Source of the DNA: a virus
Direction: 5' to 3' (one strand)
IMG/VR virus record: IMGVR_UViG_3300029989_000305
Length of the DNA stretch: 11,382 nucleotides
The notes beneath the pieces were generated by a model, which was not told where the DNA came from, did not search any database, and worked only from the letters and a program-made list of their open reading frames with translations. The translations under genes were made by a program, and so were the position numbers. Below are positions 1 to 10,025 of the stretch, piece after piece (the first letter of the stretch is position 1; every line of letters starts with the position of its first letter).

Positions 1-61
1 TTATACCAGTGATGAAATTAAAAAATATTTAAGAAAAAAGAAAATTCAAAAACTCAAATAA
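1..61 (+). CDS. 3' end of an upstream CDS (partial). Its C-terminus ...YTSDEIKKYLRKKKIQKLK* is paralogous to the C-terminus of ORF 70..432.
   Basis: Manual translation of frame 2 ends with TAA at 59-61. The tail is near-identical, at DNA and protein level, to the tail of 70..432 (DIETYLRKKKIKKLK*). Confidence 0.45.
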   Translation, partial: YTSDEIKKYLRKKKIQKLK

Positions 62-69
62 AATATATT

Positions 70-432
70 ATGAGTATAATTATAGGTGGTGGTATTATAA
101 TTTTTTTATGCTTATTAATGATTGTTTTATTAATAAAATTTGGCTATGAAAAATTAACTGATTTTGTTATACTATTTTTTTATGTTGTAATAGATATTAT
201 ACCACATCTTTATAATAAATTTAAAATTAAAATAGAGCCTGAGTACAAAAATAAAAATAATAATATTGAATTGACTATAAGTAATAAATTAGACAAACTA
301 AATATAAAAGATGTTGAATCAGTATTAAAATATTATAAATTAGATGATAAGGTTAAAGGGGTAACATTTGATATGAATCCAAAGGACATTGAAACATATT
401 TAAGAAAAAAGAAAATTAAAAAACTAAAATAA
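70..432 (+). CDS. Hypothetical membrane-anchored protein with an N-terminal hydrophobic helix and a basic C-terminal tail DIETYLRKKKIKKLK.
   Basis: ORF track. N-terminus MSIIIGGGIIIFLCLLMIVLLI is a predicted TM segment. Only 8 nt separate it from the preceding stop. Paralogue of the partial upstream ORF. Confidence 0.55.
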   Translation: MSIIIGGGIIIFLCLLMIVLLIKFGYEKLTDFVILFFYVVIDIIPHLYNKFKIKIEPEYKNKNNNIELTISNKLDKLNIKDVESVLKYYKLDDKVKGVTFDMNPKDIETYLRKKKIKKLK

Positions 433-435
433 CAT

Positions 436-693
436 ATGAAAGATAGCAGAAGATCAACAAAAAAATCTCATTGGTTATGTGCAGATTGTGGTAAAGATAC
501 ATTCATTGAAAGTAAAGATTACTATATGGTGACTACTGAATTATGGGAAAAATATGGAGTAGGCGAAAAAATGTTATGTATTGGCTGCATGGAAGACAGA
601 TTAGGACATAAATTAACCAAAGAAGATATTACTGATTGTCCAGTCAATACATTGATGAATGAATACACAATCAAGATATTAAGCAATGAATAG
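436..693 (+). CDS. Small zinc-ribbon protein with two CxxC pairs, a conserved phage-type family.
   Basis: ORF track. Motifs HWLCADCGKDT ... YYMV..ELW ... LCIGCMEDRLGHKLT look like a recurring phage Zn-binding small protein. Only 3 nt follow the upstream stop. Confidence 0.55.
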   Translation: MKDSRRSTKKSHWLCADCGKDTFIESKDYYMVTTELWEKYGVGEKMLCIGCMEDRLGHKLTKEDITDCPVNTLMNEYTIKILSNE

Positions 694-1192
694 AATAAAA
701 TGCAATGACTATTATATTATCAAAATTTGTTACTATGCTGATAAGTATTTAACACATAGATTTGATGATAAATATTATGATAAAGTCAGTAAAGATCCTG
801 TTGTAATCAAACAGCATTGGGAAAGAGCAGGATTATATCATGATTTTAAATCAAAATATATTGAGCACTTAACAGGTAAACCCATTAAAGATTGGTTATT
901 TGATTATATGTATGAACCATATGAGTGTGCATTTGAAGACATATACGAAAAATATGGTATAATATCTGCTGTATGTACAGAAGGATGGTATTATTATTAT
1001 ATACCAAAAACATTACCTGATATATTTGAATGGGTTAAAGATAATTTAGTAAGTCCTTACAAAGTAGTATCAAAAACTAAGTGGATACCGATGGTTCAAT
1101 CTAATTTGAATTGGCACAGAACAGAAAGCATAGAATTTACTCAAAAAATGAAAGATGATTTTTCAGAATTAAAAAATATAAAAAGAACATAG
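686..1192 (+). CDS. Hypothetical protein, 168 aa, rich in Tyr and Trp.
   Basis: ORF track. Its start overlaps the upstream stop by 8 nt (ATGAATAG), indicating translational coupling. Confidence 0.55.
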   Translation: MNRIKCNDYYIIKICYYADKYLTHRFDDKYYDKVSKDPVVIKQHWERAGLYHDFKSKYIEHLTGKPIKDWLFDYMYEPYECAFEDIYEKYGIISAVCTEGWYYYYIPKTLPDIFEWVKDNLVSPYKVVSKTKWIPMVQSNLNWHRTESIEFTQKMKDDFSELKNIKRT

Positions 1193-1195
1193 ATT

Positions 1196-1351
1196 ATGAG
1201 AAAAGAAGGTTACTATTGGATAAATATAGGTAAAGAGTGGACTGTGGGCGAATATCATAATAAAGAATGGTATATGACAGGGTGTGAAGAAGTTTTACCC
1301 GAAAGATTTATAAAAGAAATTGATGAAACACAAATAGAAAGAAAAGAATAA
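1196..1351 (+). CDS. Small hypothetical protein of 51 aa (MRKEGYYWINIGKEWTVGEYHNKEWYMTGCEEVLPERFIKEIDETQIERKE). It is below the ORF-track length cutoff.
   Basis: Manual translation. The ATG lies 3 nt after the upstream TAG. Its TAA overlaps the next gene's ATG (TAATG at 1349-1353), so it fills the gap exactly. The YYW...W.G.EW motif resembles small conserved phage proteins. Confidence 0.4.
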   Translation: MRKEGYYWINIGKEWTVGEYHNKEWYMTGCEEVLPERFIKEIDETQIERKE

Positions 1352-1569
1352 TGCATATACTTAGTTATAACTTAAGTGATTCAGATGATTCTGATATTTG
1401 GAGTAAATTATCAGATAGAGATAAAGTAATAAATTATTTTGATTGTCAATTTGGTAATGATATTACCTTGTTTAAAGTAATGTCATTTGATTTATTAGAT
1501 GATTGGTGTGAATTCAATCACATTGATAAAGTATTTGTTAAAAAAACAATAAAAGATTATAAAAAATAA
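1351..1569 (+). CDS. Hypothetical small acidic protein, 72 aa.
   Basis: ORF track. Its start overlaps the upstream stop by 1 nt. Confidence 0.5.
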   Translation: MHILSYNLSDSDDSDIWSKLSDRDKVINYFDCQFGNDITLFKVMSFDLLDDWCEFNHIDKVFVKKTIKDYKK

Positions 1570-1589
1570 AACTATCTCAATTGATAGTT
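1570..1589. promoter_or_regulatory. Perfect 20-bp palindrome AACTATCTCAATTGATAGTT in the 64-nt spacer directly upstream of the MVP-like gene. No T-run follows, so it is not a classic terminator.
   Basis: Read directly: 1570-1589 equals its own reverse complement. It is the only sizeable intergenic spacer in the rightward unit. Confidence 0.4.
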
Positions 1590-8386: not shown

Positions 8387-8388
8387 GA

Positions 8389-8565
8389 TTACTTATTTTT
8401 ATTAATTTTATTTAATTTCTTTCCTCTAATATATGCTTCAATTACCTTATCATCAATTCTATCAAGTATTTCTTTATCTGATAACACTCTAACCTTTTGA
8501 GATTCAGCATATGTATCATGATATGTGGTTTTTAATTTGTCTATACTAATTGTATCATATTTCAT
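8389..8565 (-). CDS. Small hypothetical protein of 58 aa (MKYDTISIDKLKTTYHDTYAESQKVRVLSDKEILDRIDDKVIEAYIRGKKLNKINKNK) carrying the same tail motif (VIEAYIRGKKLNKINKNK). It is below the ORF-track cutoff.
   Basis: Manual translation. The ATG is 2 nt after the upstream stop and the stop is 2 nt before the next ATG, so it fills the 8387-8567 gap exactly. Confidence 0.35.
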   Translation of the reverse strand: MKYDTISIDKLKTTYHDTYAESQKVRVLSDKEILDRIDDKVIEAYIRGKKLNKINKNK

Positions 8566-8567
8566 AA

Positions 8568-9206
8568 TTATTTCATATTAGGTCTAAATGATGTTTTTTT
8601 ATCAAATCCTTTTGATTCAATCTTTTGAACATTAGTCATAGTATCTACATGATCTTCTGCTATTGTTCTTTGATATGAAATCCAATCAGAAATCATTTTA
8701 TATACTTCTTCAGGTGAAACGAATGAATTAAGATTCAAATCTTTTAATATACAATTTTTATAAAGGTTTTCATCTTTATCATCATCCTTTCTTAACAGTA
8801 TTGGACAATTATACTTATCATTCATTTTTGTCATATCCTTTTTAATTATTAAATTAAAATGCTGATATGAATATCTATAACTACCTATTTTTATACTAAT
8901 ATAATCGTCTGGTTTAACATCATCTGAACGATTAAATCTATAATACCATTTAGAATGTTTTTCTACGTCAGCAAATTGTTTTAAATCTTCACCATAATAT
9001 ATTTTATCTCCTTTGTAATATGATTCAATTAGAAATCCACCAATATATAATCTCAATTTACCTTCATCAGGTAAATCATTACTTATCGACAAAGTACTAA
9101 ATGTAGGCATAGTAAAATCTAATCTATTCAATACTATCAATGGATCTACTCCATAAATACCTGATAGAAAGTCATAAAAATCTTTAAACTTACTTATTAT
9201 CCTCAT
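8568..9206 (-). CDS. Hypothetical protein, 212 aa.
   Basis: ORF track. It is the largest ORF of the leftward unit and I recognised no domain. Confidence 0.6.
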   Translation of the reverse strand: MRIISKFKDFYDFLSGIYGVDPLIVLNRLDFTMPTFSTLSISNDLPDEGKLRLYIGGFLIESYYKGDKIYYGEDLKQFADVEKHSKWYYRFNRSDDVKPDDYISIKIGSYRYSYQHFNLIIKKDMTKMNDKYNCPILLRKDDDKDENLYKNCILKDLNLNSFVSPEEVYKMISDWISYQRTIAEDHVDTMTNVQKIESKGFDKKTSFRPNMK

Positions 9207-9221
9207 TATATTTGTTTTTAA

Positions 9222-9407
9222 TTATCCATTATTATAAGATGTAATAACATCATTATCTATTTCTAAATTTACTCTTTCAGGAATAAAATCACAAGTGACT
9301 ATATAATACTCAGAGTCAGCTCTAACAACTCTATAATCGGTATAATTATCTTTTAATATTTTAATTCCTTCTTCTTGTGTTTTCCCTATAATTGTATCTA
9401 TATTCAT
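9222..9407 (-). CDS. Small protein of 61 aa with a potato-inhibitor-I / CI-2-like motif pattern (GKTQEEGIKIL ... RVVRADSEY ... ERVNLEIDNDVITS). This is a weak call.
   Basis: ORF track. The pattern G-K-x-x-E-E-[AG]-x-x-[IL], then R-V-x-L-x-x-D...V, resembles the CI-2 family (GKSVEEAKKVI...RIDRVRLFVD) recalled from memory. Confidence 0.45.
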   Translation of the reverse strand: MNIDTIIGKTQEEGIKILKDNYTDYRVVRADSEYYIVTCDFIPERVNLEIDNDVITSYNNG

Positions 9408-9425
9408 TTTATTTATTTTATTTAT

Positions 9426-9575
9426 TTATTCATTTTCTATATATGTTATTAAAAATTTTTTACCTCCAAACTTTGTTTTGAAATATAATTTATCATCAAT
9501 CATTCTTAAATCTTTTGCATCATCAGGTAATTTACTTTTTAATTCATCACTGATATTCAACACCTTTTTTTTCAT
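9426..9575 (-). CDS. Small basic hypothetical protein of 49 aa (MKKKVLNISDELKSKLPDDAKDLRMIDDKLYFKTKFGGKKFLITYIENE). It is below the ORF-track cutoff.
   Basis: Manual translation. Its ATG immediately abuts the stop of 9576..10025. Confidence 0.3.
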   Translation of the reverse strand: MKKKVLNISDELKSKLPDDAKDLRMIDDKLYFKTKFGGKKFLITYIENE

Positions 9576-10025
9576 TTACTTTAATTCTTTTTGTTTAGTT
9601 CTTAAAATGTAACCTTCAATATATTTAACATCAAAAGATTTAAAAACATCATACATATTTACAGAATCTTCATCATCGATTTCAGTATTATAATTATCTA
9701 TATTATTTATTTTCAATAGTTTTATTTTTCTTAAATAAGATTCAATATCATTTAAATTATAATTATATAAATTCATAGTTTTTTTGATATCATTGATATA
9801 ATCATCACAAGAAAAATGAGTCAATTGAAAATCTCTAACTGTAGTAGTATTATCACAACCCCAATAATTAAACCTAATTGTAATATCATCATCACAAATA
9901 TCAATTATCTCAGCTTTTCTACTAATAGGAGTTAAGTACTCAACCCAAACCAATTCTCCAATATTATAATGATTTTCTGTGTACAATGTATTATTAATTT
10001 TCAATATCTTCCCAGTCAATATCAT
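9576..10025 (-). CDS. Hypothetical protein of 149 aa containing an internal copy of the tail motif (NDIESYLRKIKLLKI).
   Basis: ORF track. It overlaps the upstream gene by 32 nt. Confidence 0.55.
   Translation of the reverse strand: MILTGKILKINNTLYTENHYNIGELVWVEYLTPISRKAEIIDICDDDITIRFNYWGCDNTTTVRDFQLTHFSCDDYINDIKKTMNLYNYNLNDIESYLRKIKLLKINNIDNYNTEIDDEDSVNMYDVFKSFDVKYIEGYILRTKQKELK

Follow-up and report, generated by a model that had tools for sequence, protein, structure and literature searches.

INTRODUCTION

Compact elements that bring proteins to a common place are known from several systems. Encapsulin cargo proteins carry linear, C-terminal loading peptides of ~10 residues. The capsid-targeting sequence of phage T4 is an N-terminal element on internal proteins that is removed by the prohead protease, and the binding of cargo to the eukaryotic vault is mediated by the ~160-residue INT domain of PARP4. 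A structure of PARP4 with the vault is available (PMC12280208), and the C-terminal domain of P22 gp8 has been described as a coat-binding helix-turn-helix (bioRxiv 10.1101/2022.12.13.520362). MVPs of phages have been reported earlier, with function unknown (bioRxiv 10.1101/2023.11.10.566534). Here, we analyze a stretch of viral DNA of 11,382 nucleotides (IMG/VR record IMGVR_UViG_3300029989_000305; referred to as the window), in which the motif IExY[LIV]RKKK[IL] recurs on small proteins encoded around an MVP-like gene. The original prediction took this motif for a candidate cargo-targeting tag of the MVP shell. We report that it is the core of a longer C-terminal module of 21 to 33 residues, and that this module quite possibly, if still short of probably, acts as a portable folded docking handle through which many fast-evolving N-terminal parts reach one conserved partner.

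The likeness to encapsulin cargo loading lies in a short conserved C-terminal element on differing proteins and, in one clade, in carriers encoded beside a shell-protein gene. However, the candidate shell here is an MVP and not an HK97-fold encapsulin: no Pfam or PHROG match to an encapsulin/HK97 shell gene was obtained in the window, and the MVP is its sole shell-type protein. Moreover, the element is a predicted folded hairpin of ~30 residues with a sequence unrelated to the loading peptides, its carriers are mostly tiny and disordered rather than enzymes, and the link of the module to the shell gene is not conserved. Measured against a linear peptide, the element has the C-terminal position, and in the small class of carriers a disordered segment precedes it, yet it appears as a ~30-residue helical hairpin with internal covariation. 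The T4 capsid-targeting sequence shares with the module the scheme of a single constant targeting element attached to small, hypervariable proteins from plastic tandem loci of large phages, whereas the element here is C-terminal, predicted to be folded, and shows no evidence of cleavage. As with the INT domain of PARP4, docking within an MVP shell has been proposed for the module, which is likewise C-terminal; INT is a domain of ~160 residues, and the carriers showed no similarity to it and no Pfam match of any kind. The PRANC/F-box-like domains of poxvirus ankyrin proteins form a C-terminal docking domain that links variable N-terminal parts to one partner in a large and fast-diversifying viral multigene family; they have another fold and belong to another type of virus, and the N-terminal parts here are mostly disordered and not repeat domains.

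RESULTS AND DISCUSSION

The motif is the core of a C-terminal module

The motif observation is real and was understated by the original prediction. All five copies were located where they had been placed in the window, four of them within 7 residues of the stop codon and the fifth internal (Table 1). Alignment extends the motif to the consensus xTDEExLDxIDIKxIExYLRKKKLExINKK. A profile search of 5.8 billion proteins recovered 286 members, and HMMER, run exhaustively on 1.84 billion cluster representatives, recovered 496 at E <= 0.001; among the matches listed, family members are 43 to 123 amino acids long and have no Pfam domain. The module ends 1 to 13 residues from the C terminus in 120 of 120 motif-bearing database proteins, and the C-terminal placing also holds for all 150 cluster representatives among the matches listed. 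Ahead of the module the sequences are unconstrained; they vary extremely, and N, Y, D, and W are often abundant in them. Counterpart genes were compared between genomes with MVPs 88 to 93% identical: the last 30 residues share 63 to 87% identity and the N-terminal parts 14 to 48%. Conservation on the protein level, as had been claimed, is borne out by the codons used in 28 distinct copies (AGA, CGT, CGA, and AGG for R; TTA, CTT, CTA, CTG, and TTG for L), a diversity that rules out a DNA-level repeat or recent duplication.

The original prediction had named A-rich composition as the finding that would undo it; the motif is beyond chance by this measure. No match to the strict or the relaxed regular expression arose in 300 dinucleotide-preserving shuffles of the window. 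LR756500, a complete 462-kb phage genome with a guanine-plus-cytosine (GC) content of 24.3%, was read whole (465 kb including overlaps) and gave no match to the regular expression and a best score of 10.5 bits with the hidden Markov model (HMM) of the module. A scan for the 10-residue core across 596 Gb of bacterial and archaeal genomes gave 34 sites, and none of these is a full C-terminal module. The remaining genes of the window have acidic or neutral tails, so that A-rich 3' ends do not account for the motif. Altogether, the shuffles, the genome of equal GC content, the prokaryotic genomes, and the nonbasic tails elsewhere in the window rule out a composition artefact. One protein of LR756500 (L031 49767-50000 / L032 267-752) ends in ...KIKISRIERYLRSQEDN, 5 residues before its stop, and scores 9 to 10.5 bits with the module HMM; it could be a very distant tail analogue or a chance match.

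Searches of Pfam, PHROGs, NCBIfam, and PADLOC returned nothing significant on any module carrier, a PDB profile search with the module and a Foldseek search with its model gave no match, and a literature search for the motif strings returned no papers. As judged from these searches, the module defines an undescribed family of very small proteins that is restricted to phage and metagenome sequence. Four carriers were also compared by tblastn with 50,697 GenBank phage genomes, with nothing for three and chance-level matches (E ~8-9) for one; this comparison is uninformative, the queries being short and the low-complexity filter on. A weak PADLOC match of 9576-10025 to SduA/DUF4263 (E = 7e-4, 16.8 bits, residues 58-122) overlaps a low-complexity region and the module and is probably spurious.

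In IMG/VR, the module is confined to low-GC (0.20-0.29) phage contigs. Its genes usually stand in adjoining clusters of two to five (pairs in loci L014, L020, and L027, three in L107, four in L011, and five in L090). In loci related to the window, ~11 further small module genes lie just left of the window edge and ~4 right of the array of genes for putative SH3-like barrels described below. This locus alone counts >20 module genes, and the family overall ~500 clusters. Amplification in the lineage of a ~711-kb contig proceeded by tandem duplication.

Predicted fold and candidate docking surface

AlphaFold2 was run on the 61-residue protein 8201..8386 with 98 sequences. The N-terminal 33 residues, which are predicted to be disordered, have a predicted local distance difference test (pLDDT) score of 54 to 68 in the model and no secondary structure save one short helical turn; helices span residues 34-39 and 43-60 with pLDDT 85 to 93. 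A hairpin is thus predicted with confidence, in which [ST]DEExL forms a short capping helix, DxID the turn, and xxIExYLRKKKLExINKK a long amphipathic helix. Covarying pairs lend support to a folded hairpin in which the short helix would pack antiparallel on the first half of the long one: D12/Y22 and E12/F22 occur in 62 and 17 sequences, with 5 other combinations, and the charge pair E8/K25 is swapped to K,R8/E25 (Fisher p = 5.6e-7 in 84 sequences filtered at 70% identity, shared ancestry uncorrected). The protein 8389..8565, in which position 8 is K and position 25 is G, is a member of the charge-variant subgroup. On the hairpin model the last two turns (KKLxxIxKK) would be left exposed. Two residues, R24 and K27, do not vary at all, and R does not freely take the place of K, which speaks for a specific interface over generic charge.

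We propose that the module would fold on its own, that its first ~20 residues would build the fold, and that a common partner would dock on the last two exposed helical turns (R-K-K-K-L-x-x-I/L-x-K-K). As a handle or address label shared by its carriers, it would bring many different N-terminal parts to the same place. The partner would be well conserved across these phages or their hosts, and the evidence does not single out MVP for the role. Hundreds of the proteins encoded by huge phages are small and of unknown function, and the module would be the handle on one large, fast-evolving set of them. If it is a docking handle, its partner would reveal a hub of huge phages (a compartment, shell, nucleoid, or host machine), and the module itself would offer a compact portable tag of ~30 residues for engineering.

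Several points weigh against a docking handle. The hairpin fold is itself a predicted one, and the covariation test takes no account of shared ancestry. A search for a conserved neighbour gene in the role of the partner found none, and only the 76-residue protein 7969..8199 recurs, ~5.5 kb from the module pair of L014. Nucleic-acid binding, too, would suit a conserved basic helix that sits on SH3-like barrels, coiled coils, and a membrane anchor. Finally, two features would fit self-association rather than docking, namely the segregation of the module into one acidic and one basic half and the tandem double copies within one chain of 70..432, 9576..10025, and P0278. In such self-association, hairpins would pair acidic half against basic half into homo- or hetero-oligomers, the two-copy proteins being built-in dimers or membrane-anchored hubs, and the usual side-by-side placing of several paralogues (L014, L020, L027, L011, L090, and L107) suits such an arrangement as well. 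We nevertheless regard homotypic association as unlikely, as packing inside one hairpin explains the covarying pairs and the internal copies have lost the basic cluster.

The order of helix, turn, and basic amphipathic helix at the extreme C terminus, predicted here by AlphaFold2, recalls P22 gp8, the end of which (...GDVETYRKLKAKLKGIR) was read from NC_002371. Locally, ETYRKLKAKLKGI of gp8 resembles SEYRKNKLKQL of the array tails and IETYLRKKKIKKL of the module. Homology to the P22 scaffold on account of its ETYRKLKAKLK stretch was rejected, the module HMM giving no match and the array-tail HMM -1.1 bits, and we treat the likeness as an analogy only. The carriers also differ from gp8, a scaffold of ~300 residues: they are 45 to 150 residues long, number in the dozens, and have no capsid gene beside them. 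If the module attached to the scaffold or the inside of the capsid, many small proteins could be packaged and later injected; a constant tag, a hypervariable rest, and tandem clusters reminiscent of T4 internal-protein loci would suit this reading along with the analogy. Such virion or procapsid targeting strikes us as very unlikely. A sequence relationship to gp8 is lacking, in the PDB profile search as well. No capsid gene was identified in the window, and the loci fetched show a single capsid-type gene, with a Peptidase_S77 prohead-protease domain, ~8 kb from the MVP gene in L111. Moreover, membrane-anchored carriers are unlikely to be packaged.

The module is carried by different kinds of proteins

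The module, or its C-terminal two-thirds, appears on at least four kinds of N-terminal part: disordered, coiled coil, two-segment membrane anchor, and Tudor/SH3-like (Table 1). Short disordered segments precede the module in 8201..8386 and 8389..8565. The coiled-coil-looking carriers, of 75 to 126 residues, are encoded at 4914-6339 of L008, a close relative of the window (assignment from sequence only). The original prediction had called the carriers mutually unrelated. This stands insofar as the N-terminal parts of the window and L008 proteins, with the module removed, fall into 11 blastp groups; it does not stand for all five motif carriers, which include one related pair and one putative one. 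The proteins 8201..8386 and 8389..8565 are neighbouring members of one small class, and the partial open reading frame (ORF) ending at 61 is, by synteny with L008, a putative tandem paralogue of the membrane-class protein 70..432.

A precursor of ribosomally synthesized and post-translationally modified peptides, with a constant C-terminal "follower" and a variable core, was also considered. The variable parts are, however, rich in N, Y, and D and not in C, S, and T, and the module also occurs on folded and membrane proteins.

Proteins of 122 to 127 residues with an internal and a C-terminal degenerate copy, laid out as in 9576..10025, occur in L084, L088, and L100, on other contigs of the same or sister genomes. 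These two-copy proteins lie far from the MVP region, and therefore the family extends beyond the surroundings of MVP even within this lineage.

Table 1. Coordinates of the module copies, their carriers, and other features in the window
Feature	Position	Strand	Remarks
Module copy DEIKKYLRKKKIQKLK	11..58	+	End of partial ORF running off the left edge; putative membrane-class paralogue (synteny with L008 7706..8044)
Copy 1, core	17-46	+	IKKYLRKKKI; 4 residues ahead of stop at 59-61
Membrane-class protein, 120 aa	70..432	+	Hydrophobic segments 76-135 and 163-210
70..432, degenerate internal copy LDKLNIKDVESVLKYYKLDDKVK	289-357	+	7.8 bits
70..432, C-terminal module copy	367-429	+	Core 388-417; 18.2 bits
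Copy 2, core	388-417	+	IETYLRKKKI
MVP-like gene, 817 aa	1634..4087	+	MVP_shoulder 2.5e-27, Vault_3 4.9e-09, both above Pfam cut-offs
Array	5296..7783	-	10 overlapping genes, 11 domains; small barrel (GDKVVC...IYTI...RF), then basic helix
Array tails (RFxSLxEYRKxKLxQL)	5299-5364, 5514-5573, 5738-5794, 5937-5996, 6199-6255	-	
Array tails, continued	6424-6462 (internal), 6650-6709, 6877-6945, 7122-7190, 7348-7416, 7565-7630	-	
Full module ETDEHKLDSIDMSVIESYVRKKKLENINKK of 61-aa protein 8201..8386	8204..8293	-	63.5 bits
Copy 3, core	8222-8251	-	IESYVRKKKL
Full module LSDKEILDRIDDKVIEAYIRGKKLNKINKNK of 58-aa protein 8389..8565	8392..8484	-	52.0 bits
Copy 4, core	8413-8442	-	IEAYIRGKKL
149-aa protein	9576..10025	-	N-terminal part 9858-9959 Tudor/SH3-like (sequence pattern only)
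9576..10025, degenerate C-terminal copy ...KYIEGYILRTKQKELK	9579-9644	-	3.8 bits
9576..10025, internal module copy	9702-9770	-	Core 9717-9746; 17.3 bits
Copy 5, core	9717-9746	-	IESYLRKIKL; internal

The MVP gene and the distribution of the module

With both Pfam matches above the cut-offs, the protein encoded by 1634..4087 ranks as a full-length, bona fide MVP homologue. A strong terminator-like hairpin (4124-4160) follows the gene. The six close relatives in IMG/VR (loci L003-L008) encode MVPs 88 to 93% identical to that of the window, and the best GenBank phage relatives, at 49 to 52% identity, come from the uncultured huge phages LR756500 (462 kb) and LR756501/LR756503 (735 kb). Because proteins of the window recur on metagenomic contigs of up to 711,471 bp and its MVP has these IMG/VR and GenBank relatives, the source is a huge, low-GC phage. 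The family of phage and metagenome MVPs is large, with >6,300 matches at E <= 1e-10 and 159 IMG/VR loci. Some copies stand on contigs binned as Lokiarchaeota or Paceibacterota, which are probably mis-binned phage DNA.

We surveyed 47 IMG/VR loci with a strictly conserved MVP peptide. Module or tail genes lie near the MVP gene in 6 of them, all from the clade of the window (MVP >=88% identical); the other 41 (~390 kb, GC 0.24-0.56) lack module and tail genes in the vicinity. Within 10 kb the same is true of four further MVP loci, whose MVPs are 56 to 75% identical, and LR756500, a complete genome with MVP, has no module gene anywhere. MVP without the module is common, and adjacency of the two is limited to one clade. 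On a contig of 531 kb, the MVP gene lies at ~155 kb and the module gene at ~305 kb, ~148 kb apart. In the lineage of L014, L020, and L027, T4-like genes accompany the module pair, and the MVP gene (product 72% identical) is >10 kb from it; L020 and L027 had been candidates for an MVP-free counterexample, which was ruled out when their contigs were found to encode MVP. No complete genome with the module and without MVP was found, and the module-bearing lineages with enough sequence all carry MVP. Nevertheless, this co-occurrence carries little weight because MVP is very widespread and shared ancestry would lead one to expect it.

These distributions bear on the idea that the module is a viral-vault address label, docking dozens of small, fast-evolving proteins, some of them membrane-anchored, into or onto the vault-like shell of the neighbouring MVP. 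In the clade of the window, ~15 module genes and the array flank the MVP gene on both sides within 10 kb; on a contig of 222 kb, 5 of 5 pattern matches fall within ~7 kb of MVP; and MVP shares a contig with the module in every lineage with enough sequence (contigs of 43.6, 74, and 531 kb). These placings are outweighed, in our judgement, by the MVP loci and the whole LR756500 genome that lack the module, by the distances of >10 kb to ~148 kb in other lineages, and by the GC range of MVP phages (0.24-0.56) against that of module contigs. Moreover, membrane-anchored carriers such as 70..432 and a disordered "cargo" of ~30 residues would be an odd lumenal load, and eukaryotic vault cargo uses the large INT domain and no short helix. 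We therefore hold it very unlikely that the module addresses proteins to the MVP shell; the link to MVP is unsupported and somewhat disfavoured, short of being refuted. The targeting-tag idea of the original prediction survives in its logic, which is supported because the element is conserved on the protein level, strictly C-terminal, and portable on differing N-terminal parts; the MVP shell as its addressee is unsupported, given the 41 loci without the module. Were the viral-vault label nonetheless real, it would have no described precedent among systems that load or tether cargo on noneukaryotic vaults, and it would have evolved in one MVP-bearing phage lineage, others using other labels or none. 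The question of phage MVP function is narrowed in that the candidate "cargo tag" is no general companion of phage MVP.

The array of putative SH3-like barrels and its basic tails

The array encodes predicted small barrels, each followed by a basic helix. The AlphaFold2 model of an array protein has five strands and a C-terminal helix (residues 62-76) with pLDDT 87, and the best Foldseek matches of the barrel in the PDB are PsaE, SH3, and chromo domains, at E ~0.1 only and template modeling (TM) scores of 0.43 to 0.54. The tail is an add-on to the barrel, since the more distant barrel homologues do without it. The wording "related but distinct" in the original prediction is a fair one for these tails, their homology to the module being unproven: the two can be aligned with a one-residue gap, and hhalign gives P = 0.0075 with a probability of 2%, the module HMM at most 5.9 bits. 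We rejected the array tails as the same module, the alignment being consistent yet not significant.

A basic helix that anchored its various carriers (small barrels, coiled coils, membrane anchors, and disordered segments) on nucleic acid, be it DNA or RNA of the phage or of the host, would account for the net charge of +3 to +6 in the last 20 residues of most carriers and for the isoelectric point of 9 to 9.5 in most array proteins. The combination of SH3-like barrel and C-terminal helix is also that of small DNA-binding proteins such as Sso7d, and a membrane anchor followed by C-terminal modules recalls p16.7 of phage phi29. Still, nucleic-acid anchoring seems to us an unlikely role. A strict distinction of R from K and conserved acidic and aromatic positions are unusual for nonspecific backbone binding, the full module is approximately charge-neutral, two array members are acidic (isoelectric point 4.7-4.9), and 0 of 98 family members match SAP, HeH, or another DNA-binding Pfam family at E <= 10. 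Likenesses to SAP/HeH and SinI were dropped, none of the 98 members matching the Pfam models of these families at that threshold.

Successive array genes (5103-7783, minus strand) overlap by 7 to 20 nucleotides, the next start (ATGTTCAAAGTAGGTGA = MFKVGD) falling within the tail of the previous gene. The last tail residues (e.g., NVQSR) are dictated by the start of the neighbour because this start lies inside the tail, and the unit of tandem duplication therefore included the overlap. The array gene 6196..6660 is a fusion of two units.

Genomic setting and other genes of the window

The window has a GC content of 24%, with small ORFs tightly packed on two convergent strands: plus-strand genes extend up to ~4400, and minus-strand genes run from 11163 down to 4753. 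A second terminator-like hairpin lies at 4715-4750, and a promoter scan of the window gave no signal above shuffles.

The 76-residue protein encoded at 7969-8199 (minus strand) lies just downstream of the two small module genes. Its homologue at 15729-15977 of L014 (46% identity, E = 3e-13) adjoins a T4_Y16D gene, in a lineage unrelated to that of the window. L014 also carries a B12-binding radical SAM gene (13508-14734) ~3 kb from its module pair.

Three other proteins of the window match PHROG families, each of unknown function: an 85-residue protein with two CxxC pairs, zinc-ribbon-like (436-693, plus strand; phrog_6053, 1.1e-15); a 212-residue protein with a weak relative in LR756500 (8568-9206, minus strand; phrog_4243, 2.7e-15); and a 115-residue protein (4753-5100, minus strand; phrog_8428, 8.4e-11). 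Three very small, strongly hydrophobic ORFs of 56 to 64 codons (7787-7957, 10417-10611, and 10617-10790, minus strand) have the look of single- or double-pass membrane proteins.

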